A program made the position numbers and the translations under genes. Positions 29,839 through 55,184 of a DNA stretch of 64,000 nucleotides are shown here, one piece after another. The number at the start of each line of letters is the position of its first letter. Positions within the stretch are counted from its first letter, which is position 1. The notes below the pieces were generated by a model. The model searched no databases, was not told the DNA's origin, and worked only from the letters and a program-made list of their open reading frames with translations. Source of the stretch: Alphaproteobacteria bacterium (GTDB taxonomy: Bacteria; Pseudomonadota; Alphaproteobacteria; UBA2966); assembly GCA_964291395.2 (NCBI GenBank), contig OZ219856.1, positions 416,001 to 480,000 of the forward strand. The letters are read 5' to 3'.

Positions 29839-30272
29839 GATGGGCCGTGATCGTGCTCGCCCCGGCCGTCGCGGTTGGTATCGGCGGGTACGTCTACGTC
29901 ACCTCTCCGGATCACCAGAGCGAACGACGGCTGGAAGCCGGCCAGGCCAATGCCGCTCTCGCCGAAGTTTCCCTGCCGGAGGCGCTGTCCGCGCGCGCGA
30001 AGCTCGGGCAACGGGCTTTCGATGCGAAGTGCGCGTCATGCCATGGCGGAAACGCCGCAGGACGGGATGGGCTGGCTCCGCCGTTGGTGCACAACATTTA
30101 CGAACCCGGCCATCACGGGGACGAGTCGTTTCAACGGGCGGTCGCCATGGGCGTCAGGGCCCACCATTGGACATTCGGGAACATGCCGCCTGTCGAGGGT
30201 CTGACCCGCGGAGACGTGTCCCTGATCGTGGCCTACATCCGGGAGCTTCAACGCGCCAACGGTATCCAATGA
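29829..30272 (+). CDS. membrane-anchored c-type cytochrome
   Basis: N-terminal TM segment, CASCH and HHW.FGNMP. Confidence 0.85.
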   Translation: MSLRWAVIVLAPAVAVGIGGYVYVTSPDHQSERRLEAGQANAALAEVSLPEALSARAKLGQRAFDAKCASCHGGNAAGRDGLAPPLVHNIYEPGHHGDESFQRAVAMGVRAHHWTFGNMPPVEGLTRGDVSLIVAYIRELQRANGIQ

Positions 30273-30610
30273 AGGGATTCCTCCTTGCCGGACTTCTGGC
30301 CCTGGCGGCAACGCCGGCGCTGGCCCATTCCGGCCTCGACGCGACCGCGCCGATGAACGGCGCCGTGCTGGAGGAGGCTCCGCCCCATATCGTCCTCACC
30401 TTTGCCAAACGCACCCGCCTGACACGGGTCCGGATGGCCCATGGCGACAATCAGGCGGTCGATGTCGACCTTGGCGGCCAGACTTCTTTCGCGACCCGGT
30501 TCGTGGTTCCGTTGACGGACATGGGCAGCGGCCTCTACCGGATCGAGTTGCGCGGCCTCTCGGGCGACGGACACCCCGTGCGCAACGCCTTCACATTCAG
30601 GGTGCAATGA
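30269..30610 (+). CDS. copC: CopC copper-binding protein
   Basis: signal peptide ending ALA-H, DGH motif. Confidence 0.82.
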   Translation: MKGFLLAGLLALAATPALAHSGLDATAPMNGAVLEEAPPHIVLTFAKRTRLTRVRMAHGDNQAVDVDLGGQTSFATRFVVPLTDMGSGLYRIELRGLSGDGHPVRNAFTFRVQ

Positions 30611-30613
30611 TCC

Positions 30614-31492
30614 TTGCCCGACACCTGGGAACTGGCCTCGGCCTTCGCGCGGTCCCTGCTCTATCTCGGGGTGCTCGGAAGCGTCGGCCTGGTCCTCGCC
30701 CGCATCGTCTTCCGCCGGGAGACCGGCGGTCTGCACGATCCCATGGTCCGGCAGGCGACGGCTCTCGCGACGCTCGCGCTTCTGGCTGCCGGCCTCGGCT
30801 TCGCCCTGAAGGGCGCTGCCATGACGGGCGGGTTCTCGGGCATGACCGACCCCGAGATGCTGGGGCTCCTCTGGCAGACCCCGGCCGGGACGGCGCTCCT
30901 GCTCCGGGTTGCCGGCCTGATTACGATCCTTGTCGCCCTTCGCGTCCCCGCTATCGGCCTTCCTCTCGCCGCCGTCGGCGGCCTGATGACGCTGTGGTCA
31001 TTTACCGGGGTGGGGCATGTCGCCGATGCGGGGGCGCTCTGGCTCGAAATGCTGCTTCTGCTGCATCTCGCCGGCGTGGCGTTCTGGATCGGCATCCTCT
31101 CGCCTCTCCGCACGCTTGCCGGCGACCCCGAAGGGCTCTCCCTCGCGGCCGGCCTGGGCCATCGTTTCGGTCGCATCGCCGCGTTCACGGTGCCGGTCCT
31201 GATCGCCGCCGGGATCGTCATGGCATGGCGCCTGCTCGGGGAAGCTTCCGCCCTGGTCGCGACGGGATACGGCCTCACCCTGCTTGCGAAAATCGGCGCG
31301 CTCGGCCTGCTGCTAGGCGCCGCGGCGGCCAACAAGCTCCGTTTCGTTCCGGCCGTGAGGGCGGGCGACCGGAGCGCGGCTTTCGCGCTGCGACGTTCCA
31401 TCGCGGTCGAGTGGGCCGCGGTCTGTTTCGTCCTCCTGGCGACGGCCGTTCTGACCACGGTGCCGGACTTGCCGCCCGGAGGTGATCCGTGA
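30614..31492 (+). CDS. copD: CopD family inner-membrane protein
   Basis: GH, HL...FWIG, YG..L..K and AANK motifs; multiple TM segments. Confidence 0.85.
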   Translation: MPDTWELASAFARSLLYLGVLGSVGLVLARIVFRRETGGLHDPMVRQATALATLALLAAGLGFALKGAAMTGGFSGMTDPEMLGLLWQTPAGTALLLRVAGLITILVALRVPAIGLPLAAVGGLMTLWSFTGVGHVADAGALWLEMLLLLHLAGVAFWIGILSPLRTLAGDPEGLSLAAGLGHRFGRIAAFTVPVLIAAGIVMAWRLLGEASALVATGYGLTLLAKIGALGLLLGAAAANKLRFVPAVRAGDRSAAFALRRSIAVEWAAVCFVLLATAVLTTVPDLPPGGDP

Positions 31493-32787
31493 ACCGAAGA
31501 GAGTTCCTCATAGCCTCGACCGCAGCGGTTCTGCTCCCGACGACCGGCTGGGCGGCGCCCACCATCCGCTTGAGGGCCGGGCCCGTCAACGCAAGGATCC
31601 TGCCCGAACCCAAAAGCCTCACCCCGATGCTCGGCTTCAACGGCACGACCCCCGGACCCGAACTCCGCGCCCGCCAGGGGGACCGGATGTCGGTCGCCTT
31701 CGAGAACGGAACGGGACAGCGCTCCGCCGTCCACTGGCACGGCATCCATCTCGACAACGCGATGGACGGGGTGCCGGAGCTGACGCAGGAGCCGGTCGAA
31801 CCGGGCGCGGCCTTCCACTACGCCTTCGATGTCCCTTACGCCGGCACCTACTGGTACCACGCCCACCATCGCTCCTGGGAGCAGGTCGCCAGGGGTCTTT
31901 ACGGGCCCCTGATCGTCGAGGAGCCGGACCCGCCCGCCGTCGCCCGCGACATTACCGTCGTCCTCGACGACTGGCGCCTGGAACGTAACGGCTCGCTGCA
32001 CGAGAGCTTCGGCAACCGGCACGACTTCTCCCATGCCGGACGGATAGGAAACGTCGCCCGGGCCTTGTTCTCTCGGAACACGGTGCGGCGCGGGGACCGG
32101 ATCCGCCTGCGGCTGATCAACGCGGCCACCGCAAGGATGTTTCCCGTGAGGATCGACGGGGGAAACGGCAAGGTCGTGGCCCATGACGGGATGCCGCTCG
32201 CCGTTCCGGCCCCTCTGGGCGACCTTTTCCTCGCCCCGGCGCAGCGGACCGACGTCATGCTGGACGTGACCGGCCCGGTCTCCTTCACCCTCCTGACACG
32301 GCAGGGCTCCTACGGGCTCGGCACCATCGCCGTCAGTGGGTCGAACCCCGCGCCGACCGATGCTCCGATCCGGCCCCTGCCGCCGGCCCACGTGCCCGTG
32401 CCCGACCCGAACGGGGCGGCCCGCCTCACCCTCGTCATGCAGGGCGGCGCCATGGGCGGGCGGCACGGGGGCAGCGACTTCTGGGCGTTCAACGACCGGT
32501 CGGGCATGGCGGACGTGCCGTGGCACCGATTTGCCCGCGGCGAGACGGCCCGGATCACGCTGCGCAACGACACCGCGTTTCCGCACGGCATCCACCTGCA
32601 TGGCCACCATTTCCACGAACTCGGGGAAGATGGCTCTCTCGGACACTACCGGGACACGACCCTGGTCGATCCGCGGCAAAGCCGGGACATCCTCTGCGTG
32701 TTCGACAATCCCGGCAAATGGCTCCTGCACTGCCACACGCTGGCGCACCAGGCGTCCGGCATGAAGACCTGGGTGGAGGTCGCATGA
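31489..32787 (+). CDS. Tat-exported multicopper oxidase
   Basis: RREFL Tat motif, HWHG, WYHAH, HGIHLHGH and HCHTLAHQASGM. Confidence 0.92.
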   Translation: MNRREFLIASTAAVLLPTTGWAAPTIRLRAGPVNARILPEPKSLTPMLGFNGTTPGPELRARQGDRMSVAFENGTGQRSAVHWHGIHLDNAMDGVPELTQEPVEPGAAFHYAFDVPYAGTYWYHAHHRSWEQVARGLYGPLIVEEPDPPAVARDITVVLDDWRLERNGSLHESFGNRHDFSHAGRIGNVARALFSRNTVRRGDRIRLRLINAATARMFPVRIDGGNGKVVAHDGMPLAVPAPLGDLFLAPAQRTDVMLDVTGPVSFTLLTRQGSYGLGTIAVSGSNPAPTDAPIRPLPPAHVPVPDPNGAARLTLVMQGGAMGGRHGGSDFWAFNDRSGMADVPWHRFARGETARITLRNDTAFPHGIHLHGHHFHELGEDGSLGHYRDTTLVDPRQSRDILCVFDNPGKWLLHCHTLAHQASGMKTWVEVA

Positions 32788-33218
32788 CGCGCGTCCTGCC
32801 GGTTCTCGCCCTGCTCTGGCCCGCGCTGGCCATTGCGGACCACGAGCTGGACAACCGCGACATCGGAAACGGGCGCGTCCTGTACAAGGAGCACTGCGCC
32901 TCCTGCCACGGCGTCCGGCTCGAAGGGCAGCCGAACTGGCAGCAGCCCGGAAAGGACGGAATCCTGCCGGCTCCGCCGCACGATGCGACCGGTCATACCT
33001 GGCATCACGACAACCGGCTTCTGTTCGACTACACGAAGCTCGGCGGCCAGGCCCTCATGGAGGCCATGGGCATCACCGGGTTCAAGAGCGGCATGCAGGG
33101 CCTCGGAGACGTCATGAGCGATGACGAGATCTGGGACGTCCTCGCCTACATCCGCTCCACCTGGCCCGACCGCATCCGGAAAATCCAGGCCACGAGAAAT
33201 CCGGAGCACGGGCAATGA
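32784..33218 (+). CDS. c-type cytochrome
   Basis: signal peptide, CASCH and GHTWHH. Confidence 0.85.
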   Translation: MTRVLPVLALLWPALAIADHELDNRDIGNGRVLYKEHCASCHGVRLEGQPNWQQPGKDGILPAPPHDATGHTWHHDNRLLFDYTKLGGQALMEAMGITGFKSGMQGLGDVMSDDEIWDVLAYIRSTWPDRIRKIQATRNPEHGQ

Positions 33219-33410
33219 CCGGTCCGGGATCCGCCCGTCGGGAAAACCCGCCTTGCATCGCATACACGAATGCGTGGTTCACCCGTCTGGAGACTTCTTC
33301 GGGCATCTGTAAACGGAGGCAGCATTGAAAACACCGACGAAGCGCGTCGAAGGATGCGGCTGTCCGGCCGCAAGGTTCGATCCCATGATTTCTGCCAAAG
33401 GACTACAGAT

Positions 33411-34211
33411 ATGAACAATCCGCAGGCACAGGCAAAACCGGGGGGTGGCGCCGCCAAAGCCGTGCGGCATGCCATCATCGCAATCGCCGCGGTGACTCTG
33501 GCCGCCACGTCCCCCGCAAGCGGCGGGCGGGCGGAGTCGGCCGCCGCGCCGCCGCCCGACAGGGACGCCGTCCGCAAGATCGTCAAGGAATACCTGCTCG
33601 AACATCCCGAGATCATCGAGGATGCCATCCGGGTTCTTCAGGCCAGGCGGGAGTCGCAGGAGCGGGACCGTGTCCAGGCCTCACTCCGCCAGCACGGGGA
33701 GGCGTTGCGGGCCCATCCGATGTCCCCGGTCTCCGGCAACCCGAACGGAGACGTCACCCTCGTCGAGTTCTTCGACTACCAGTGCGGCTTTTGCAAAAGG
33801 TCGCTGAAGCCGGTGATGGACCTTCTGGAGACCGACAAGCGGCTCCGTATCGTCTGGAAGGAGTTTCCCATCCTCGGTCCGGTCTCGCGGTTCGCGGCGC
33901 GCGCGGCGATGGCTTCCGTCAAGCAGGGCCTCTACCTCGAATTCCATGTCGCCGTCATGGGATCGCGGGGCCGACTGACGGAACAACGGGTCATGGACAT
34001 CGCCGGTGATGTCGGCCTCGACGTCCAGCGCCTTCGCCGCGACATGGAGGACCCCGACATCGAGGGGTATCTCGACGAAACGATCCGCTTGGCACGGATC
34101 CTCGGCATCAACGGCACGCCGGCCTTTGTAATTGGCGACACGCTGGTTCCGGGCGCCGTGGGTCACGCACGCCTGAAGGAGCTGATCGGCAAGGCCCGGT
34201 CCGGAGGCTAG
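33411..34211 (+). CDS. DsbA/Com1-like (ScsC-type) thiol-disulfide oxidoreductase
   Basis: EYLLEHPEII, EFFDYQCGFC and GTP cis-Pro motifs. Confidence 0.88.
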   Translation: MNNPQAQAKPGGGAAKAVRHAIIAIAAVTLAATSPASGGRAESAAAPPPDRDAVRKIVKEYLLEHPEIIEDAIRVLQARRESQERDRVQASLRQHGEALRAHPMSPVSGNPNGDVTLVEFFDYQCGFCKRSLKPVMDLLETDKRLRIVWKEFPILGPVSRFAARAAMASVKQGLYLEFHVAVMGSRGRLTEQRVMDIAGDVGLDVQRLRRDMEDPDIEGYLDETIRLARILGINGTPAFVIGDTLVPGAVGHARLKELIGKARSGG

Positions 34212-38366: not shown

Positions 38367-39701
38367 TTACGGCATTCTCCATAATCGGGACATCGGCACT
38401 GCGTGAAAGCGATCGCCAAAGGGGACGGCGGTCTCGCCGTCATAGAGCACCACGCCGCGGACGAAGCGGTCACCGGCTGCTCTTTCGAGTTTGCGCAGTC
38501 CACGAAAGTCTCTCGAACTCACCGACGCGGCCGCCTTGATTTCCACGCCGGCGACGGCGCCGGACGCCTGCTCCATCACGATATCCGTTTCGGCGCCGTC
38601 CTTGTCCCGGAAATGGAAGAACCCGGTGGGTGTGTCTTGCCAACTCGCTTGTCTTCGCAATTCCTGAAACGCGAAGGTTTCCAGGAATTGCCCCAGAAGG
38701 GTTCGATCCGCCGCCAGCGCCTTGGCGTCGGCGCCGAGCAAGGCCGCGGCGAGGCCGGTATCGGTGAGATGCAACTTCGGACTCTTGACCAGCCGCCTCA
38801 GTCGATTGCCGTGCCAGGCAGGGAGCCGTTCCAGCAGGAAAAGCCTCTCGAGGAGCGTGACGTAATCCCCGATTGACGGCCGGCTGAGCTCGAAGGGAGA
38901 GGCCAGACTGCTGAGGTTGAACAACTGAGCCGTCCGGGCAGCCGCGGCGCGCAGAAGCCTTGGCAGGACGTCGAGCGAGCGGACCCGAGTTATGTCTCGC
39001 ACGTCGCGCTGGACGAGTGCCTCCACATAGTCGCGATACCAGTTTGCCGAACGCCTCAAGGTCGGTCGTTCCAATGCCGCAGGATAGCCGCCGGCAACGA
39101 CCGTCTCGACGAGCCGTGCTCCGAGACGCTCGCATTGGAACATCGGGAAGCCGTCACCGAACAGAGCGTTCAGGAAGCCCGCATCGGGACGAGCTGGATC
39201 TGACCGACCTGCAAGCTCAAACTGTGTCAAGGGATGCAAGGGCACGATCTGCAAGCGCCCCGCGAGCGAATCCGACAATTGGGGAACAAGAAAGACGTTG
39301 GTGGAGCCCGTAAGCAGGAAACGTCCCGCCCGCTGGCGGTCGACGGATATCTTGATCGCCTCAAACAGCTCGGGAACACGCTGGACCTCGTCGAGGATGA
39401 CGCGCTCCGGCAAGTCAGCAACGAAACCCGTCGGGTCCGCCCGGGCGCCGTCTCTCGTGACGGGATCGTCGAAGCTGAAATACTTGTAGTCCCGACCTTC
39501 CCGGGAGTATCCCCATGCAAGCCGATCGCCGCCCCAGGTCAGTCGCCGGCCCCCCAGGTGGTAGTTCGGCGTGCAGGTGATCTGGGCGAGCGTTGTCTTG
39601 CCGCACTGACGCGGGCCGTGAATCAGCACGACCGGCGAATCCTCGAGCGCTTCGACAAGCCGACGCTCGGCGGACCGGGGATAGAAGACCGGATTCGACA
39701 T
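38367..39701 (-). CDS. AAA+ ATPase with DUF4143-type C-terminal domain
   Basis: GPRQCGKTT, ILDEVQ, LLTGS, GGYP, K.PK..L.DTGL and FRD..G.E.D...E motifs. Confidence 0.88.
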   Translation of the reverse strand: MSNPVFYPRSAERRLVEALEDSPVVLIHGPRQCGKTTLAQITCTPNYHLGGRRLTWGGDRLAWGYSREGRDYKYFSFDDPVTRDGARADPTGFVADLPERVILDEVQRVPELFEAIKISVDRQRAGRFLLTGSTNVFLVPQLSDSLAGRLQIVPLHPLTQFELAGRSDPARPDAGFLNALFGDGFPMFQCERLGARLVETVVAGGYPAALERPTLRRSANWYRDYVEALVQRDVRDITRVRSLDVLPRLLRAAAARTAQLFNLSSLASPFELSRPSIGDYVTLLERLFLLERLPAWHGNRLRRLVKSPKLHLTDTGLAAALLGADAKALAADRTLLGQFLETFAFQELRRQASWQDTPTGFFHFRDKDGAETDIVMEQASGAVAGVEIKAAASVSSRDFRGLRKLERAAGDRFVRGVVLYDGETAVPFGDRFHAVPMSRLWRMP

Positions 39702-39980
39702 CGGCCAATTGTAAGTTTGGACTTCGGCCGATTGCAAGATTGCGTCTCGGCCAATTGAAGACAAACCCATCGATTGCAGGTGAGTGAGCGCCCTCTCGTC
39801 AGGGGTGATCGAACATGGGCTGACCGGCCTGCGGGTGTGACAGCACAACGGCGTGAAGCCAACGTCAAATAACGCGGAATCGCCGTCAAATGTCGCCAGA
39901 ATCCCCGTCGTACGCCAGAATCCGCAAAGGGAAGGTGCTGCGCGCAGGCCGGATGGACGGTGCAACGAAATTAGGCAGGT

Positions 39981-40025
39981 TTGACAACAGACTTGTTGCC
40001 AACGATATTGATGCCAACAATATCG
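39981..40025. repeat. three imperfect 15-bp tandem repeats
   Basis: ttgacaacagacttg / ttgccaacgatattg / atgccaacaatatcg. Confidence 0.7.
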
Positions 40026-40350
40026 AGTGTCGAAGACAGACTCGACCATGCGAAAGCGTGGGCCACCGCGCTCCCCGGCCGCAAGCTGGATTTGTCCCGG
40101 ATCGTCCCGTATGGTGCCGGGAACCGTCATTCGGAACGTGTCCGGCAATGCGGGACGGATCATATGTCCCTATTGAAAAGACTCGTGAAAACAACATGAT
40201 ATGTCTTTGGAGCAGCGGAATCACAATCCGCGTGTCGGGGGTTCGAGTCCCTCCTCCGCTACCACTCGTTCCCTCCCCGGTCTATGCCGGAGACACGGGT
40301 AACGGAACGTACCCGGGACACGGGGTGACAACGCCGGTTCGAACGGATTC

Positions 40351-45264: not shown

Positions 45265-45888
45265 ATGCGCACGGTCGTGTATGTAGACGGGTTCAATCTC
45301 TACTATGGAGCCCTGAAGGATACACGCTGGAAGTGGTTGGACTTGGTAGCACTGTTCGAGGAAGTGCTCCAACCACATCACCAGATCCTCGCGGTGAAGT
45401 ATTTCACGGCCAGGGTTTCGGATACGGCCCGTGACCCAGCCAAGAGCCAACGACAAGATGTTTATCTACGAGCGCTGCGGCATCATCGGCCAGAAGTAGA
45501 GGTGTACTTTGGGCATTTCCTAACCAATAGGACGCGAATGCCGCTCGTGCGGCCGATCGGAGGTCGGCGTACAGTGGAGGTGATCAAGACCGAGGAAAAG
45601 GGTTCGGATGTCAATCTCGCTGTACATCTCCTGAACGACGCTTGGCTGGGCGCCTACGATTGCGCGGTTGTGGTGAGCAACGATGGCGATGTTGCAGAGG
45701 CGATGCGCTTGGTTAGAGAGTACCACAACAAGCGGCTCGGCTTACTGACGCCGGGTACCCGACTATCGTCCAAGCAACTCAGGACAAACGCAGACTTCAC
45801 GCGCCGCATCCGACAGACCGCCCTGCGGCGTTCTCAATTGCCAGATCCGATCCCTGGTACAAACATCCGGAAACCTCGGAGTTGGTAG
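45265..45888 (+). CDS. NYN-domain (LabA/DUF88, PIN-like) protein
   Basis: YVDGFNLYYG, EEKGSDVNLA and VSNDGD acidic motifs; GC visibly lower than the flanks. Confidence 0.88.
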   Translation: MRTVVYVDGFNLYYGALKDTRWKWLDLVALFEEVLQPHHQILAVKYFTARVSDTARDPAKSQRQDVYLRALRHHRPEVEVYFGHFLTNRTRMPLVRPIGGRRTVEVIKTEEKGSDVNLAVHLLNDAWLGAYDCAVVVSNDGDVAEAMRLVREYHNKRLGLLTPGTRLSSKQLRTNADFTRRIRQTALRRSQLPDPIPGTNIRKPRSW

Positions 45889-45975
45889 TGCGTGGCGTGG
45901 GCTACAACCTCCAGATCGCGGTGGACACCAAACACAACCCGATCGCCGAGCAGCAGGTTCACAACAAGGTCTCGG
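45889..45975 (+). pseudogene. IS1182-like transposase scrap
   Basis: VGYNLQIAVDTKHN motif directly after the NYN stop. Confidence 0.5.
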
Positions 45976-45991
45976 CCCGGCCCGGCCACCT

Positions 45992-47239
45992 TCACTGGGG
46001 CATGTGCCAGCGGGGTCGTGACGGGCGCGCCAGACCGCGCGCTTCGAGAATCGTACGCGGCACGAGGGAATGCTCCGCCACTGACTTCAGGCCGGCGTGG
46101 GTTCCTTCCAGGAACCGCCGGTGAAGGGCCAGGAGAACGTGACCCAGCGTGGTCTCTTTCCACAGCCACCGCTGAACGTCCCGGGCCGCCGCTCCCGGCC
46201 GCGCCGTCGCTGCCTCGCAGTACAGGGCCTTGAGATCTTCCACGCAGTGCTTGAAGACCTCTTCGATCGACGATTCCGGGACCGGGTTGTCAGGGTGATC
46301 GTCCAGGAAGCCGCCGATGAAGGCAGCCGCGGATTCGGGATCGAGGCTGCAGGCGCCCACCGTGGTCCGGTTGCGCCGTTCGCGGGAGAGCCCATACCAG
46401 GGCAACAGGGACCGGAGTTCGCGAACCAGAGCCGCGGCGAGGTCATCCTCGGCCACCGGAGGCGGCGCAAGGGTCACCGGACAGGCCCAACCGTCCGCAT
46501 CGATGTCGGCCTGATCCGGCAGGTCCCGGTCGTATTCCGTCAGCAGCGGCCCGTTTGCCGCGTCAAACAGGTCGAGTGCCGCCCGCAGGACACGCCGTTG
46601 AAACGGCGCGTCGCCGGGGAGACCGAAGGGGCGTCCCAACGGGAAGCTGACCCAGAGCGCCCGTGGCGGTGAGATCGCCGCGGTGTGTTCCCGGACCAGG
46701 CTGATCTGCGTCGTCGGAATCCCCGAGCCTTCCAGGTAGTGGGCGAGCGCGCCGACGGCGCGCGTGCAGCTCGGTCACACGGGAACGAGGAGCACGGCGT
46801 TCACACGGTCTTCGCGAAGAAGCGCCGCCACGGTCGCGGCGTTCTCCCGCATCCACGCGGGATGGGTACCGCCGCCCATGAACGAGTAGTGATAGTCGGC
46901 AATCGAGCCGATCAGACGGTCGCGGGCCAGCTCCCGGAGGCGGTCGATGGGAAAGACGGCATTGAGATCTTCCTGGAATCCCGTCCGATCGAAGTTGACC
47001 GATACGTGGCTCATGACGAGGTCGTCACCCGTGCTCGTGCCGGGGATGACTCGATAATCTCCGGCCCCCGGCAGAAAGGGGCGATCGCCGCGCCGATGCA
47101 GTCCGGCCGTCGTGACGATGGCGACGCGCCGTTCCGTGGCCGCCGCCGCCGCCGCCCACGGCCGACCCTCGAAGGAGGGTACGTCGGCGTTCAAGATGTG
47201 CCGGCGATCCCAATCCGCGAGATCGCTGAGTCGTACCAT
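45992..47239 (-). CDS. PrdB/GrdB-like selenoprotein (Sec UGA at 46775-46777, U155-P-S-C) with C-terminal extension, about 415 aa
   Basis: track ORFs 46775..47239 and 45992..46639 are in frame; VAIVTTAGL, D.N.VFPIDRL.EL, SFMG, LVPV-UGA-PSCTRAVG, LE..GIPT and PRAL.V.FPLGRP motifs. Confidence 0.88.
46747..46763 (-). other. bacterial SECIS-like hairpin
   Basis: GCGCGCC-GUC-GGCGCGC beginning 11 nt after the UGA. Confidence 0.75.
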
Positions 47240-47243
47240 CGGA

Positions 47244-48473
47244 TCAGTTTAGCGGAGACCAGTGTTGCTGCAGGCGCGGAATCAGATATTGCTTGCCGAT
47301 AAGCTGGAACGTCTCATCCGCGTTTCTCAGCAGAATCTTCTGCAGGTCGAAGAACACGGAGCCCGCCGTCGTCTCGCCAAAGAACCAGGCGTCCAGATCG
47401 CCGCTGGTGGGCGCGCCGGGTTGGGCGAGCATCGCCTCGTAGTAATAAGCCTTGATGTCGTCGCAGGCCCATTTCAGAGCGCGGTCCACGCGGGCGCCGC
47501 CGATGGGGCTTTCCGGAATCTCGCCCGACAGGAAAGAAAGCACGAACGCGGCCGCGTCCGGCATCTCGAGACCGCTCGACCCGACGGTTGATCGTTCCGT
47601 CTTGCGGACGGCCAAGTCATGCCAAGGCGCGAGCCGGGCCATTTCCCTTGATAGCTTGGCATCCATCGACTCGTCGCCGGGGGTAGCCGAGGGGGAGGCG
47701 AGGCCAATCGGGCAGACCCACGGCTCCTCGTCGTCGCCTCGGTCGCGGGCGGCAGGCGCGTCTTCGGAGTAGTCCGCAATTATGGGACCGTCTGTGGATT
47801 CCAGCAGTTTCAACGCCGCTTTGACGACGCGCCGCTGAAAATCGGCGTCGTTCGGGACGCCGAGCGGCCGACCGAGCTCAAACGTCACCCAGAGCGTTCG
47901 GGGCGTGCGGTTCTTCTCGCTGTGTTCCCGAATCAAGCTGATATGCACCGTCGGGATGCCTTCGCGTTCGAGATGCTTTGCCAGCGCGCCCCCGGCGCGC
48001 GTGCAGGCCGGTCACACGGGGGTGAGAAGGACAGCGTCCACGGCGTCCTTCTTGAGAAGTCCCGCGAGCTGGGCCGCGGCCGGCTCCAGGGTGACCGGGT
48101 CGCTGGCGCCCATGAACGAGTAGTGAAAATCCGCGACCGATCCGATGACCCCGTCGTCGGCGAGCTCCCGCAGCCGGTCGATGGGAAAGACCACGTTGAC
48201 GTCCCGCTGGAAACCGCTCCGGTCATAATTGATGGACGCGTGGCTCATGACCAGCCGACTGGCATCCACATCGGCCGGGATCACACGATAGTCGCTCGAT
48301 CCCATGGCGAACCGCGGGTCCTCACGTGCGGTCAGGCCCGCGGTCGTTACGATCGCCACCCGGCGCTCCTTCAGGGGAGGGCCTGCAACGCAGGGCGCGT
48401 CCTCGATTTCCGGGATGGGCATGTTCTCGAGGAAGGTTCGTTCGGGCACGGGGACATCGGCCAGTCGTACCAT
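47244..48473 (-). CDS. PrdB/GrdB-like selenoprotein paralog (Sec UGA at 48012-48014, U154-P-A-C) with C-terminal extension, about 409 aa
   Basis: track ORFs 48012..48551 and 47244..47948 are in frame; LTPV-UGA-PACTRAGG; homologous to the neighbour on both sides of the UGA. Confidence 0.88.
47984..48000 (-). other. bacterial SECIS-like hairpin
   Basis: GCGCGCC-GGG-GGCGCGC beginning 11 nt after the UGA. Confidence 0.75.
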
Positions 48474-48648
48474 GATCGGGCCTTTCGGAGTTTTCGGTGC
48501 CGCCGGAGCACCGTGCGCAAATTCAGGCCGCGTAGTTATGCCCCGAGGCAAGGCATGTCAACCCGGCCGGCCCCCAGCCGGCCCCGGGATGGCCGTCCTC
48601 ATTCCCCGGTCAGGTGCTTGGACAACCCGACGACGCCCAGCTTGCCGC

Positions 48649-49856: not shown

Positions 49857-52193
49857 TCAGCTTCGGGCCTTCGCTTCTCCGATGAGTTCGATAAGACGCG
49901 GCGGGCTGACGGGCGCTTCTCGAATGCGCACGTCGAAAGGCGTCAGCGCGTTTTCGATCGCGGATATCACGGCCGCGACGGCGGGGATGACGCCGGCTTC
50001 CCCCACGCCCTTGACGCCCAGGGGATTGACTGTCGAGGGCGTCTCGTGATGGATGATCTCGACGTTCGGCACGACGGGAGCCGTGGGCAGGAGGTACTCC
50101 GCGAACGTCGTGGTCACGGGCTGTCCGGTGTCGTCGTAGCCCATCCACTCGAACAGCGCGTTCCCGATGCCGTGCGCGACACCGCCAATGATCTGTCCCT
50201 CGACGATCATCGGGTTGATCAGGCGGCCGGAGTCGTTGACCACGAGGTAACGGGTGATCCGGACTCCGCCGGTGCCGATATCCACATCGACCTCGACGAC
50301 ATGCACGCTGTTGCCGTAGGTGAGGCCCGTGGGCAGGAAGTTGACGGTGGCTTCCAATCCCGGAGGCATGTCCTTCGGCCGCGCGTAGCCTGCGGCGCCG
50401 GACAGAGCCCTGGCGACGTCGGCCAACGACACCGAAAGGTCCGGGACGCCTGCGACGGAAATCTCGCCGTTCGTCAGCTCGAGATCCTGATCTGAAACCT
50501 CCAGCATGTGAGCCGCCGTTTTCAGCGCCTTCTCGCGCACTTCGATGGACGCCAGATGTATGGACGAACCGGCCGTGACGGTCTGGCGGCTGCCGAACCC
50601 GCCGATGCCCATCGGAACGGTGCCGGTGTCCCCCGCGATTACTTTGATGTCCTCGGGCTCCACCCCCAGTTGATCGGCGCAGATCTGCGCGTACGAGGTC
50701 TTGATGCCTTGCCCCATCGGCATCGCACCGGTGTGGACCGTGATCCGGCCGGACGGGCCGATGCGAACGATTCCCGTCTCGAAGGGGCCGCGGCCGGTGA
50801 TCTTCGTGCAGTTTGCGACGCCCACCCCGATGTAGCGGCCTTGGTCGCGGGCCGCTGCCTGCCTCTCCGCGAACCGGTCGTAGTCCGAGCCCTTCAGCGC
50901 CTTCTCCAGGCAGCTCGGGAAATCACCGCTTTCATAGTGCGTGGTAGAGCCGTCCCGTGCCTTCAAGGGCAATTCGTAGGGAATGCTGTCGGCGGGAATG
51001 AGGTTTCGGCGGCGGATTTCGGCACGATCGACGTCGAGTTCCTCGGCGATGGCATCCATCGCCCGTTCCATGGTGAATGTGCCTTCGGGGTAACCGGCGC
51101 CTCGAACGGGAATGGTGCCGACACGGTTGGTCGCTGCGATCGTCACGTCGAGCTGGTAGTTGGGCAGCAGATACGGTCCGGGAACGGCGATGGACGCGTT
51201 GTGGGGAACGTTGAAGCCGAGCAGCGTGTAAGCGCCCTGGTCGTGAATCATGGAACCGCGTAAGCCGAGCAGGCGGCCTTCCGCGTCCGTGGCCACTTCG
51301 ACATCCCAATATTGGTCGCGTTCCTGGATGGCGGCGAGAAAATGCTCGCGACGGTCTTCGATCCATTTGACGGGGCGCTTACACAGAAGCGCGGCTCCAG
51401 CCACGACGACCTCTTCCGGATAGACGACGTGCTTGGATCCGAATCCGCCTCCGACGTCCGGCGTTATGGTGCGTACCAGAGTTTCATCGAGGCCGTAGAT
51501 GTCCACGAGCGTGTTGCGCACGCGATGCGCGCCTTGTGTCGACGACCAGACCGTCAATCCCCCGGTGGAGGAGTCGAACTGGGCGACGATCCCCCGTCCC
51601 TCGAGGGGGTGTCCGCTGCCGCGATGCTGCTTGAGCGAAAGCGCGAGAACGTGGGCGGCAGCTGCGAAGGCAGGTCGGCAGTCGCCGTATTCCGTGCGAA
51701 ACCTCGCCACGACGTTGTCCGGAGCGTCCCGGTGGACTCGGGGGGCGTCGGGCGCCAATGCGTCTCTGCAGTCCGAGACCGAAGGAAGAACTTCGTACGT
51801 CACATCGATCAGAGCAACCGCATCCTCCGCGACATAGCGAGAGTCCGCGAGCACGATCGCCACGATTTCGCCGACGTAGCAGACTTCTTCCTCCGCCAAT
51901 ACGATGGCCTTCGTGGACTCGGCGAATTTCAGCGTCGGGTTGTCCGGCGGGATCAGATTCTTGGTCAGAAGTGGCGCAAGGTCCGCATAACTGAACACGG
52001 CATGGACGCCGCGCAGGTTTCGGGCTGCGGTCGAATCGACGGAGCGTATCAGCGCGTGCGGATGCGGACTCCGCACGAAGGCGGCCTCCACCGTCCCGGG
52101 CAACTCGATATCGTCCGCGAACCGGGCCGTGCCGGTGAGCAGGGCCGCGTCCTCGAGGCGACGTGTGGGCGAGCCGATGAAATCCCCTGTCAC
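49857..52193 (-). CDS. xanthine dehydrogenase-family molybdenum hydroxylase, large subunit (CoxL-like)
   Basis: VGGGFGSK, PVRGAG.PE, GQG, GSR and GVKGVGE motifs. Confidence 0.9.
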   Translation of the reverse strand: MTGDFIGSPTRRLEDAALLTGTARFADDIELPGTVEAAFVRSPHPHALIRSVDSTAARNLRGVHAVFSYADLAPLLTKNLIPPDNPTLKFAESTKAIVLAEEEVCYVGEIVAIVLADSRYVAEDAVALIDVTYEVLPSVSDCRDALAPDAPRVHRDAPDNVVARFRTEYGDCRPAFAAAAHVLALSLKQHRGSGHPLEGRGIVAQFDSSTGGLTVWSSTQGAHRVRNTLVDIYGLDETLVRTITPDVGGGFGSKHVVYPEEVVVAGAALLCKRPVKWIEDRREHFLAAIQERDQYWDVEVATDAEGRLLGLRGSMIHDQGAYTLLGFNVPHNASIAVPGPYLLPNYQLDVTIAATNRVGTIPVRGAGYPEGTFTMERAMDAIAEELDVDRAEIRRRNLIPADSIPYELPLKARDGSTTHYESGDFPSCLEKALKGSDYDRFAERQAAARDQGRYIGVGVANCTKITGRGPFETGIVRIGPSGRITVHTGAMPMGQGIKTSYAQICADQLGVEPEDIKVIAGDTGTVPMGIGGFGSRQTVTAGSSIHLASIEVREKALKTAAHMLEVSDQDLELTNGEISVAGVPDLSVSLADVARALSGAAGYARPKDMPPGLEATVNFLPTGLTYGNSVHVVEVDVDIGTGGVRITRYLVVNDSGRLINPMIVEGQIIGGVAHGIGNALFEWMGYDDTGQPVTTTFAEYLLPTAPVVPNVEIIHHETPSTVNPLGVKGVGEAGVIPAVAAVISAIENALTPFDVRIREAPVSPPRLIELIGEAKARS

Positions 52194-52708
52194 GGCGAGA
52201 TGGCCCCATTTCGGGCGCGGAGTCGGCCCGCCGCGTCGAGCACCGCCCTCACGATCCCTTGATAGCCCGTGCAGCGGCAGATGTTGCCCGAAAGCGCCTC
52301 GCGAACCTCATCCTCGGCGGGGTCCGGATTCTCTCCCAGGAACTCGACCATCGAGGTGAGAATACCCGCGGTGCAGAAACCGCACTGCAGCGCATGGTGT
52401 TCATGAAAAGCCTGCTGCAGGGGATGCCATTCCCCGTCGCGGGAGGCGATTCCCTCGACGGTCGTGATCTCGGCGTCATTCGCCTGCACGGCGAGCATCA
52501 GGCAACTACGCGCGCTGCGACCATCGACCAGCACCGTGCAGGCGCCGCAGACGCCGTGTTCGCATCCGAGATGAGTGCCGGTCTTTCCGAGCTTGTGCCG
52601 CAGGCAATCCGCGAGGGTCATCCGCGTTTCGACGTCGATCTCGCGGCGTTCGCCGTTCACCACCAGGACGACGGACCTCGTCTCCGGAAGTTCGTGGCTG
52701 TCAGTCAT
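52190..52708 (-). CDS. Mo hydroxylase [2Fe-2S] small subunit
   Basis: GCEHGVCGACT, QCGFCT and NICRCTGY motifs. Confidence 0.9.
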   Translation of the reverse strand: MTDSHELPETRSVVLVVNGERREIDVETRMTLADCLRHKLGKTGTHLGCEHGVCGACTVLVDGRSARSCLMLAVQANDAEITTVEGIASRDGEWHPLQQAFHEHHALQCGFCTAGILTSMVEFLGENPDPAEDEVREALSGNICRCTGYQGIVRAVLDAAGRLRARNGAISP

Positions 52709-53580
52709 GCCGACGAGCCTGCCCCGGGCTCTGCCAGGGCCGAGCGGAGAGCGCGCGACGTCAACTCCACCGCCAGGTGCCGTCGGTACGAAGGCGACGC
52801 GTGGACGTCTTCCATCGCCTCGAGGTCCGCGCATGTCAGGGCCGCCGAGCGGATGCCGTCGGGATCAGGCGCGCGGCCGGTCAGCTGTTCTTCCGCGGCC
52901 GTACAGCGCACCGGTGCCGGGCCGACGCCTGCCAGCACGATGCCCGCACGGCTGAGGGTTCCGTCGGTTCCGAACTCCAACAGGGCCGCTACGCCGACGA
53001 TCGCGAAATCGCCGGGACGGCGGGCAAACTCGACGAACGCCGACTTGTGTCCGGCGGGCCAGGGGGTGAAGCTCACGGCGCTGACGATTTCGTCGTGTCC
53101 GATGGCCGGTGTCATGTAGAACGCGGGGAAGCCGGTCATCGGGATGTCGCGCGCGCCTTCGGGACCGACTACGTGAACGGTCGCATCGAGGGCGGCGAGG
53201 ACGGCGGGCAGTTCGGCCGCGGGGTCGAGGTGGCAGAGGCTGCCGCCGATGGTGCCACGGTTTCGGGTTTGCGGGTGTCCGACCTGCAGCAGGGCCTTCC
53301 GCATCAAGGGGCAATGCCGGTGGAGGAGGTCGGAGCGCTCGATGTCCCGTTGGCGCGTCATGGCGCCGATCACCAGCCGGCCGCCGGCTTCGCCGATATG
53401 CGACAAGTCCGGTATCCGGTTGAGATCGATGACGTGGTCGGGCAGCACGTAGCGCATGTTCAGCATGGGCATCAGGGATTGCCCGCCCGCCAGGAACTTT
53501 GCGTTGTCGAGCGAGGCGCCAAGGGCGACCGCCTCCTCGAGGGTACCGGGGTCGTGATAGCGAAAGGGCGGCGGTTTCAC
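52705..53580 (-). CDS. Mo hydroxylase FAD-binding medium subunit
   Basis: KPPPF.Y, AGGQSL and RNRGTIGGS..H.DP motifs. Confidence 0.9.
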   Translation of the reverse strand: MKPPPFRYHDPGTLEEAVALGASLDNAKFLAGGQSLMPMLNMRYVLPDHVIDLNRIPDLSHIGEAGGRLVIGAMTRQRDIERSDLLHRHCPLMRKALLQVGHPQTRNRGTIGGSLCHLDPAAELPAVLAALDATVHVVGPEGARDIPMTGFPAFYMTPAIGHDEIVSAVSFTPWPAGHKSAFVEFARRPGDFAIVGVAALLEFGTDGTLSRAGIVLAGVGPAPVRCTAAEEQLTGRAPDPDGIRSAALTCADLEAMEDVHASPSYRRHLAVELTSRALRSALAEPGAGSSA

Positions 53581-55184
53581 GGCCCGGGGCGGTCCCACGG
53601 GTCCAGCCGCGCGGCGTGGCGCGCCGCCGTCCAGCCGCCGACGAAACATTCGGCCATGTTGCCGCCGCCGAGGTACAGGTGTCCGAACACGCCGCCGAGT
53701 TCCCCGGCCGCGTAGAGGCGCGGAATGGGCTCGTCGAACGCGTTCAGGACTTGTTGATGCACGTTGTGCACCGGTCCGCCGTGCGTGTTGGAGCAGACCG
53801 GCCAGACTTCCGCGCAATAGAACGGGGGCGTCTCGATCTTCATCATCGAGGGCGGCGGCCGGCCGAAATCGTCGTCGTGCCCGACATCGCACATCGCGTT
53901 CCAGCGCTCGATCGTTTCGCTCAGGACCCGCTCCTCGAGGCCCATGTGCGACGCCAGCTCCGACAGGCTGTCCGCCTTGGTGACGATACGATCTTCCAGC
54001 GCGCGCAAGGAGTCTTCGCTGTACTCGAACGAGAAACGCCGATCGTTGAACGTCGGCGAGCACAGGGGCCACGTCCGGCGGGCGGGATCGTCCAGGACGG
54101 CATAGGAGGGTATGCGCGGATAGCTCTGCGTGTGCGTGTCGTACAGGGACATGGGCCGTGCCGAGGTGTCCTGCATGTAGGGCGGATACTCGTTCATGTA
54201 TCGGCGCCCCTGCCGATCGACGACGATCCACGGCATTTTCACATCGTTGCGGGGCGGCTTTCCCGGAACCCAATCAGGCAGACGCTTGGGCCTGAGGCCA
54301 TAGGGATAGTCCGGATCCGGATGCCGGAATCCATAAACTCCGTGGTAGTTCCACATGTGCCACAACGCCGCGCCGGCGTCCTGGGCCATGCGGATGCCAT
54401 CGCCCGTGCTGCCGCGGAAGGCCGCCAACAACACCGGTTGTTCCGGCCAGTGCTGCAACTGCAGGTCGGGGTCGGCTTCGAATCCGCCACAGGCGAGGAC
54501 GACCCCCTTCCGGGCCTTGATGTCCTTGGCGCCATCTCTCGTATCCACGGTCAGACCGCGGACTTCGCCCGTCGGACCCGTGATCAGGCGCTTGGCCGCC
54601 GACTCCAGCCAGACCGTCACGTCCCGCTGCGCAATGTTGTCCTCCAGGACCTTGAACAGACGGGCGCCGGCGGCGCGGTGAATCGGAACGTAGCTGTTGA
54701 CGTGCGGGTATCGGGCCGCGGCGTCATAGTCGGGGACGCTGGCGATGCTGGCGTAGCCGAAGGTCTCGGCGCCCGGAAACGGATAGTTGCCCGGATTGGC
54801 GCGATACCCAACCTCGGCGCCGCTGGCCTCGGCAAGCCATTCGAAATAGCCGACGACTTCCGTCATGCCGACGGCCAGGGCCTTCAGGACATCGTCGGGC
54901 GTCGTGCCGGCGCAGGTTTCCTTGAGATACGCGAACGCCTCATCGGCATTCTCCGCGGCACGCACGTTGCCGCCCGAGCAAATCGAAATGCCCCCGGGGT
55001 CCGACATCTTTTCCAGAAGAAGAACCGAGCAGCCGGCTTCGCTCGCCTCAATGGCCGCAACACCGCCAGCGTACCCGTAGCCAACAACAACTATGTCAAA
55101 ACACCCGTCCCAGGACCGGGTGCCTGCCTGGTCACCTGCCACGTTTTCTCTCGGTTTCCTTGGCGAGGGATCGATCCCGCCCAA
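53577..55184 (-). CDS. FAD_binding_2 flavoprotein (fumarate reductase/ketosteroid dehydrogenase-like); start uncertain
   Basis: VVGYGYAG, LACGGF, TGDGI.MA, THGG and LYAAGE motifs. Confidence 0.85.
   Translation of the reverse strand: MGGIDPSPRKPRENVAGDQAGTRSWDGCFDIVVVGYGYAGGVAAIEASEAGCSVLLLEKMSDPGGISICSGGNVRAAENADEAFAYLKETCAGTTPDDVLKALAVGMTEVVGYFEWLAEASGAEVGYRANPGNYPFPGAETFGYASIASVPDYDAAARYPHVNSYVPIHRAAGARLFKVLEDNIAQRDVTVWLESAAKRLITGPTGEVRGLTVDTRDGAKDIKARKGVVLACGGFEADPDLQLQHWPEQPVLLAAFRGSTGDGIRMAQDAGAALWHMWNYHGVYGFRHPDPDYPYGLRPKRLPDWVPGKPPRNDVKMPWIVVDRQGRRYMNEYPPYMQDTSARPMSLYDTHTQSYPRIPSYAVLDDPARRTWPLCSPTFNDRRFSFEYSEDSLRALEDRIVTKADSLSELASHMGLEERVLSETIERWNAMCDVGHDDDFGRPPPSMMKIETPPFYCAEVWPVCSNTHGGPVHNVHQQVLNAFDEPIPRLYAAGELGGVFGHLYLGGGNMAECFVGGWTAARHAARLDPWDRPGP

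Follow-up and report, generated by a model that had tools for sequence, protein, structure and literature searches.

Does the minus strand at positions 45,992 to 48,473 of this alphaproteobacterial DNA carry four short open reading frames (ORFs), or two longer genes that are each read through an internal UGA, and what would the products do? The window analysed here is the whole stretch of 64,000 nucleotides (nt) from contig OZ219856.1 (positions 416,001 to 480,000) of assembly GCA_964291395.2, and all coordinates without a prefix refer to it. A plain ORF listing of the minus strand gives four pieces at this place: 48012..48551, 47244..47948, 46775..47239 and 45992..46639. An earlier sequence-only reading had proposed, without stating the strand, that they represent two genes 4 nt apart encoding relatives of PrdB and GrdB, the selenoprotein B subunits of the clostridial Stickland reductases. 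When TGA is read as selenocysteine (Sec, U), the four minus-strand ORFs indeed join into two genes, A and B, with the following features (lengths in amino acids, aa; SECIS, selenocysteine insertion sequence).

47244..48473, minus strand: gene A, predicted PrdB-like selenoprotein, 409 aa plus TGA stop (coding 48473 to 47247; stop 47246-47244)
48012..48014, minus strand: predicted Sec codon of gene A (UGA, U154), motif T-P-V-U-P-A-C-T-R
47984..48000, minus strand: SECIS-like hairpin of gene A, 7-bp stem GCGCGCC/GGCGCGC, loop GGG, starting 11 nt past the UGA
47240..47243, minus strand: spacer of 4 nt from the stop of A to the ATG of B; the frame of B differs from that of A
45992..47239, minus strand: gene B, predicted paralogous PrdB-like selenoprotein, 415 aa plus TGA stop (coding 47239 to 45995; stop 45994-45992)
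46775..46777, minus strand: predicted Sec codon of gene B (UGA, U155), motif V-P-V-U-P-S-C-T-R
46747..46763, minus strand: SECIS-like hairpin of gene B, stem GCGCGCC/GGCGCGC, loop GUC
45937..45951, minus strand: terminator-like hairpin with T-rich tail, about 40 nt past the stop of B; weak

The products of A and B share 47% identity over 402 residues (E 2e-121), with homology on both sides of the TGA and with the two U positions aligned. Each gene contains a single in-frame TGA within a U-P-x-C-T-R motif, and the contexts LTPV-U-PACTRAGGALAKHLE (A) and LVPV-U-PSCTRAVGALAHYLE (B) are exactly those that had been reported. Every invariant residue of the family is kept in both proteins. A promoter scan found nothing, and the three terminator-like sites in the region do not exceed the number expected from shuffled sequences (1.9 +/- 1.3). 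In public data that consist of short contigs only, a contig from an RNA library spans the A/B junction (47113-47340), where DNA carry-over is possible, and no near-identical RNA contig was found over either UGA.

Several independent lines of comparison indicate that both in-frame UGAs are almost certainly Sec codons, as far as sequence can tell. The source genome (4.16 Mb in 3 contigs, 64% GC, 98.1% completeness, 9% contamination) encodes selA (573.6 bits), selB (425.6 bits) and selD (309.6 bits), all above the curated cut-offs, and a tRNA-Sec gene (selC, anticodon tca) is located at C1:1022640-1022734, adjoining selB and selA. A six-frame search with the Pfam GRDB profile revealed six copies of the family in this genome, each match ending just before the U, and all six read P-[VIM]-U-P-x-C with TGA at the site. 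A scan of species-representative genomes, one per species, confirmed at least 598 among 601 candidate stretches; 80 loci were kept, spanning Alphaproteobacteria, Burkholderiales, Gammaproteobacteria, Thermodesulfobacteriota, Chloroflexota, Gemmatimonadota and others, and all 88 homologous genes in these loci carry TGA at the aligned codon, in agreement with the earlier argument that chance nonsense mutations at one codon are unlikely. In 31 related genomes, exactly one TGA was found in 44 of the 45 matches, the exception being the tail of a frameshifted copy.

The exchange between Sec and Cys points in the same direction. Among the 120 database matches listed, the 21 full-length homologs all have Cys at the Sec column (21/21), and the remaining 99 are fragments (226-264 aa) restricted to the region downstream of the UGA. 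The Cys homologs are continuous proteins across the Sec site, and in the tree the Cys forms are nested within Sec clades at several places. Compared with four relatives, the ratio of nonsynonymous to synonymous substitution rates (dN/dS) lies at 0.09-0.28 upstream of the UGA and at a similar 0.17-0.30 downstream; the low values after the UGA indicate purifying selection on the downstream sequence. P155, C157 and E169, all invariant, fall within the 21 residues that separate the UGA from the next codon at which translation could restart. In addition, both TGAs are kept in DNA contigs from other samples, in which strain variants differ at scattered sites only. Thus, the presence of the Sec machinery and the Cys/UGA exchange, which the sequence-only reading had named as checks, both came out in its favour.

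The hairpin downstream of the UGA is conserved as RNA. In each of the six paralogs of the genome, a 7-bp hairpin spans nt 15-31 (numbered from the U); the short paralog, too, has a stem at this place, of quite different sequence and closed by a CGUGA loop. Across 86 distinct sequences, covariation analysis counted 24 double-change cells against 2.8 +/- 1.5 in shuffles, none of 500 shuffles reached 24, and controls with slid partners gave at most 10. One stem pair occurs as CG (70), UA (9), AU (3), GC (3) and UG (1) and is never unpaired. Several of the compensations alter the encoded residue (R to C, G, T or S), which argues that the RNA pairing, and not the protein alone, has been conserved. 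It is therefore strongly supported that SelB and tRNA-Sec would read the UGA as Sec under the guidance of this predicted 7-bp hairpin.

To which family do the two proteins belong? Both match Pfam GRDB (PF07355) above its gathering score (A 46.6 bits, B 39.2 bits), at profile positions 200-345 of 347 only. Their best match in NCBIfam is PrdB, TIGR04483 (A 124.1 bits, E 5.7e-36; B 108.3 bits, E 4e-31), aligned at profile positions 26-221 of 238 on the N-terminal domain, and the U-x-x-C motif takes the form U-P-A-C in A and U-P-S-C in B. The proposed kinship with PrdB and GrdB is thereby upheld, with a distance from both. The PrdB equivalog cut-off of 300 bits is not reached by A, by B or by the other four paralogs (100.2-125.5 bits), and the GrdB, GrdF and GrdH models give 50-78 bits against cut-offs of 602-800. 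Only A exceeds the subfamily cut-off of TIGR01918 (65.45), with 80.8 bits against 54.6 for B and 43.1-50.3 for the other four paralogs; this model is matched at profile positions 200-421 of 431 only, leaving the N-terminal approximately 200 residues of GrdB unmatched.

The model of the gene A product obtained with AlphaFold2 (AF2) from a 50-sequence alignment has a predicted local distance difference test (pLDDT) score of 91.6 and a predicted template modelling (pTM) score of 0.91. Gene B has the same architecture, in which the following parts can be distinguished (residues of A).

About 32-240: Rossmann-like, PrdB-type N-terminal domain
Between the domains: linker with C254
About 270-403: helical C-terminal domain

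In the model, a strand (147-151) is followed by U154 directly ahead of a helix (155-170); the linker with the near-invariant C254 is predicted with lower confidence, and an all-helical domain comes next. Beyond the motif, the invariant charged or polar residues include R63, D84, R85, D91, N93, D99, R100, E169, R192 and Q213. A Foldseek search of the PDB with the model gave no match at E <= 0.001, a search of the ESM Atlas with a natural Cys homolog (P0012) returned the family itself only, and a search for fused forms of at least 717 aa found none, which is weak evidence.

Taken together, the architecture is that of a PrdB core with a new helical domain and without the N-terminal half of GrdB, unlike either known form. 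PrdB is the best-scoring family, has U-x-x-C at the equivalent place and also inserts Sec by UGA, but it is a single domain of about 240 aa, whereas A and B reach 409 and 415 aa through an added helical domain at the C-terminus, for which no solved relative was found. GrdB, GrdF and GrdH (PF07355; TIGR01918, TIGR01917, NF040794, NF040795) share the Pfam GRDB match and Sec in U-x-x-C; unlike them, A and B have no counterpart of the first 200 residues of GrdB and no U-x-x-C-x-x-C.

The clostridial enzymes work with partner subunits, and the sequence-only reading had found none in the window. Genome-wide, neither GrdA (PF04723) nor PrdA/GrdE (PF09338, six-frame search) gave a match, in searches for which no control genome was positive for either family, and the best match to PrdC reaches 46 bits against a cut-off of 490. 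Among the scanned neighbours at related loci, no PrdA/GrdE or GrdA was found. Unlike the clostridial hosts, this one has an aerobe-type genome: it encodes oxygen-dependent enzymes, as had been noted, together with two haem-copper oxidases. The family thus appears to be self-contained and to occur without the pyruvoyl subunit (PrdA/GrdE), GrdA or PrdC.

No conserved partner emerged from the gene neighbourhoods. On the same strand upstream of the pair lie genes for a flavoprotein, three subunits of a Cox-like molybdenum hydroxylase and a short-chain dehydrogenase/reductase (SDR), and downstream lies a NYN-domain gene on the other strand, followed by DinB. The upstream Cox-like/SDR set is not a conserved feature: in the closest relatives, MreB and a DRL-type oxidoreductase occupy its place. 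The immediate neighbours of 84 loci fall into 190 groups, among which no shared operon partner was found; those scanned are diverse transporters, solute-binding proteins, dehydrogenases and regulators. A TauD-family dioxygenase is located 67 nt upstream of the gene in L076 and divergently from the paralog 804, and it is fused in one database protein; within 10 kb, TauD occurs at 6 of 85 loci only. A MEDS-HTH regulator lies downstream at five loci of Thermodesulfobacteriota, and TctC, DctP and other solute receptors recur near family loci. Judged by such contexts, the substrates might be small organic acids or osmolytes, although this is a hint and no proof.

The fused protein (P0022, 708 aa) combines a Cys-form PrdB-like N-terminal part with a TauD/TfdA dioxygenase C-terminal part; it is the sole fused form and was seen once. 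The other features of the window are these.

49857-55184, minus strand: the three subunits (large, 2Fe-2S, FAD) of a Cox-like molybdenum hydroxylase, with a FAD_binding_2 flavoprotein, upstream of the pair; for aerobic CODH group 5 the large subunit stays below the cut-off of 950, at 752.7 bits
55307-63998: catabolic island; its TauD-family dioxygenase stays below the cut-off for taurine dioxygenase (291.7 against 313 bits), other genes encode an NMT1-type solute-binding protein, an ABC ATPase and a GntR/UTRA regulator, and a fused hydantoinase/oxoprolinase A+B gene runs off the window
45265-45888, plus strand: NYN-domain gene between the selenoprotein pair and DinB
38367-40163, minus strand: AAA_14/DUF4143 ATPase
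29840-34211, plus strand: copper-handling cluster with CopC, CopD, a multicopper oxidase and a ScsC/DsbA-like protein

The NYN gene may be a small insertion; it is not among the ORF clusters shared at the loci of the closest relatives, although no search aimed at NYN was made.

Several points weigh against the interpretation developed so far. The Sec assignment is a prediction from sequence. Because no control genome was positive for PF04723 or PF09338, the absence of GrdA and PrdA/GrdE is not proven, and the searches for partners were made on a genome that is 98.1% complete and 9% contaminated. The stability of the hairpins is not above that of dinucleotide shuffles of this GC-rich sequence (z +0.37 for A, -1.32 for B), the region matched no Rfam family, SECIS included, and the stem overlaps conserved codons, so that its conservation is owed in part to the protein. 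A wide fold search with residues 32-240 returned generic Rossmann, LacI, PBP and SDR matches only (best Z 8.8), and the helical C-terminal domain alone (pLDDT 93.8) found no chain with Z >= 5 among 48,161 (best 4.9). Finally, what can be said of the substrate, the reductant and the oligomeric state is tentative. With these points included, we estimate the probability that A and B are real selenoproteins of a stand-alone PrdB-like family at about 80%.

How new is such a family? The sequence-only reading had presented the pair as hidden. This holds for public gene calls, in which the family is cut up (of the best 150 representatives, 113 consist of a C-terminal piece), but not for the literature. 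In the Sargasso Sea, a 'proline reductase PrdB' (pfam07355, UxxC) was reported as the third most abundant selenoprotein family with 42 genes, together with one Cys homolog and only one GrdA (PMC1088965), and in the GOS data 235 'PrdB' genes were listed in 38 samples, with the criteria given in Table 2 (PMC2398784). Further copies were described in Anaeromyxobacter, Geobacter and a worm symbiont with five (PMC1794560, PMC1976440), and later reviews keep the D-proline reductase label (PMC5029168, PMC9312934, PMC13188914), one of them naming the motif U-x-x-C-x-x-C (PMC13188914).

The pair described here shares with this catalogued marine 'PrdB' (Zhang, Fomenko and Gladyshev 2005; Zhang and Gladyshev 2008) the pfam07355 match, the U-x-x-C motif, the in-frame UGA, the Cys homologs and the SECIS-like hairpin. 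The catalogued family is abundant in oxic samples; its identity with the long form carrying the helical domain is an inference of ours. In the available parts, these papers transfer the function of D-proline reductase and make no mention of the missing partners, of tandem pairs or of multi-copy genomes, and our literature search, which did not cover subscription journals, found no function of their own given to PrdB-like members outside Stickland systems. A and B are thus members of a catalogued but functionally uncharacterised family, which surveys have placed among the most abundant selenoproteins of the sea since 2005. The core of the earlier proposal (recoded UGAs, PrdB-like proteins, no Stickland partners found) was right, and its claim of a hidden novelty was overstated. 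What is new here is a conserved tandem pair of deeply diverged paralogs and a genome with six copies.

The four additional paralogs of this genome, three long (410-432 aa) and one short form of 290 aa without the helical domain, lie outside the window, and each has TGA at the same site and a downstream hairpin.

L101:9004-10236, minus strand: paralog
L102:8992-10287, minus strand: paralog
L103:9001-10230, plus strand: paralog
L104:8997-9866, plus strand: paralog

Their contexts differ: (i) TauD and a gene like 3-hydroxyisobutyrate dehydrogenase; (ii) an aldehyde dehydrogenase, a GMC oxidoreductase and a tautomerase; (iii) an SDR and a DctP receptor; and (iv) a GntR regulator and Liv-type ABC genes. 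The same tandem pair is found in all five other genomes of the genus, each with 3-5 copies, and at loci L021-L024; a second alphaproteobacterial set of tandem pairs (L025-L028) occurs in other clades, where it lies between MurJ and TrpRS. The intergenic gap in relatives is 3-9 nt (L021, L022, L027, L028). In the taxonomic family, delimited by group code, each of the 12 further genomes searched carries one copy or more; a sister family with small genomes has none (0/10). A single copy is present in most genomes, and Reyranella soli NBRC 108950, for instance, has one ortholog (locus L044).

In a tree of 109 rows, from which three Cys homologs were left out, A and its four orthologs make up one fully supported clade and B and its four orthologs another; the two clades are not sisters, indicating that the pair is old and not a fresh duplication. 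Gene B groups with paralogs 804 and 2343 and with a clade of Burkholderiales. An approximately unbiased (AU) test on 50 rows (59 dropped) did not reject a single grouping of the two B-types (p-AU 0.126), so that tandem pairs may have arisen once or twice.

Other observations concern the same genus and genome. In one genome of the genus, a copy is split by a frameshift into two overlapping matches (G005:C1:821346-822568) and is probably a decaying paralog. The source genome has at least two further candidate selenoproteins; both are similar to CMD/AhpD (L107:247-249 and L108:817-819) and have an in-frame TGA in C-x-x-U, with motifs RCPTU and GCFYU...H and Pfam CMD scores of 50.6 and 23.3 bits. 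In each, a hairpin whose loop reads CGUGA(A) follows about 20 nt further on. When the whole genome was scanned crudely for other recoded UGAs, 117 candidates came up, mostly gene junctions, and the scan was not discriminating. Part of the region 45900-48600 is held by 20 of 24 listed public runs (17 studies), 7 of which hold at least half of the sampled words; as these runs are mostly labelled sponge metagenome, the organism may be sponge-associated.

What, then, might the two proteins do? In the chemistry described for PrdB and GrdB, a selenolate attacks, a nearby Cys resolves the adduct to a selenenylsulfide, and a dithiol reduces it (PMC13188914). By analogy, the selenolate of A or B would attack a small substrate, probably one bearing a carboxylate, in a pocket perhaps lined by the invariant Arg, Asp, Asn and Gln; Cys157 would resolve the adduct to a selenenylsulfide, which a cellular dithiol (thioredoxin or similar) would re-reduce, possibly via the near-invariant loop Cys254 as a relay. 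Because no pyruvoyl subunit was found, the amine of the substrate could presumably not be activated as a Schiff base; the substrate would then have to bring a good leaving group of its own or undergo a redox reaction, or the protein would be a more general redox enzyme. We regard this cycle as having even odds.

The sequence-only reading had suggested a possible heterodimer. From the gene arrangement, we infer that A and B, being tightly spaced and probably co-transcribed, are made together; they would then either assemble into a mixed oligomer or serve two related substrates. An alternative to a complex is that the two are independent enzymes for related substrates that happen to share an operon and do not interact. 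Most genomes manage with one copy, A and B each keep all invariant residues, and elsewhere in this genome the paralogs occur singly, in differing contexts; the tandem order and the gap of 3-9 nt, kept throughout the genus and in L025-L028, fit stoichiometric co-production, although they are no proof of contact. On this balance, independent action falls only slightly short of an even chance.

A general role as thiol/selenol-disulfide oxidoreductases, that is, as glutaredoxin-like carriers or repair enzymes that cleave no specific bond, appears unlikely, if still worth serious consideration. The arrangement of U-P-x-C at the start of a helix after a beta-strand resembles the CPxC of glutaredoxin, and a sequence search of the PDB, which found no PrdB or GrdB structure, gave glutaredoxin as its sole match (E 0.46, not significant, over 28 residues). 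This likeness is local, the overall folds differ, and it is a motif-level analogy and not a membership. Uncharacterised selenoproteins are expected to be mostly redox proteins according to a review (PMC9312934), and extremely varied neighbourhoods fit a general role. Against this, the many invariant charged residues and the large C-terminal domain suggest a specific binding pocket, 3-6 diverged paralogs in one genome fit several substrates better than a single housekeeping role, and solute-binding proteins, dehydrogenases and TauD recur nearby.

A more specific proposal is that a mixed oligomer of A and B would be a pyruvoyl-independent, oxygen-tolerant counterpart of the Stickland reductases, displacing a leaving group from a host osmolyte, such as a quaternary ammonium, sulfonium, taurine- or betaine-type compound, with recycling by thioredoxin. 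We consider it improbable, and its leads are weak: the links to TauD, the GMC oxidoreductase and aldehyde dehydrogenase genes that precede paralog 680, and the nearby solute-binding proteins. Choline dehydrogenase is a member of the GMC oxidoreductase Pfam family. If the proposal were true, reductive C-N or C-S cleavage, so far credited to anaerobes only, would also take place in aerobic, possibly sponge-associated, symbionts and in many marine and soil bacteria.

It is very improbable that A and B are instead the selenoprotein B subunits of a true D-proline or glycine/sarcosine/betaine reductase with partners encoded elsewhere. The best family matches are to PrdB and then to GrdB, GrdH and GrdF, the U-x-x-C motif is shared, and the published tables use the label 'proline reductase PrdB' (PMC1088965, PMC2398784); yet the scores of 108-124 bits lie far below the 300 of PrdB and the 602-800 of GrdB, GrdH and GrdF, PF09338 and PF04723 had no match in the genome or among the scanned neighbours, PrdC remained at 46 of 490 bits, a helical domain of 150 aa is added, the N-terminal 200 residues of GrdB are unmatched, and the genome has haem-copper oxidases. 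That the TGAs are ordinary stops, arisen as nonsense mutations or marking a true layout of four genes whose N- and C-terminal pieces are made separately, can be set aside: gene callers do split the family in this way and UGA also ends both A and B, but the same codon is TGA in 88/88 genes across phyla, the Cys homologs run through the site, conserved residues lie between the TGA and the next start, the hairpin covaries and the Sec machinery is complete.

Stand-alone PrdB-like selenoproteins thus account best for the pair. The family to which they belong is large, with 4456 clusters at 50% identity in a profile search (E <= 0.001) and at least 598 loci in species-representative genomes, and it is among the commonest selenoprotein families of oxic marine and soil bacteria; it carries the name of a clostridial enzyme of anaerobes although the partners of that enzyme were not found with it, and most gene calls divide it into two pieces. 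The six diverged copies of this genome, in six contexts that include the tandem pair, provide several handles for finding the substrate, which, once known, would account for the retention of the costly Sec machinery by many aerobes and would correct a widespread annotation.

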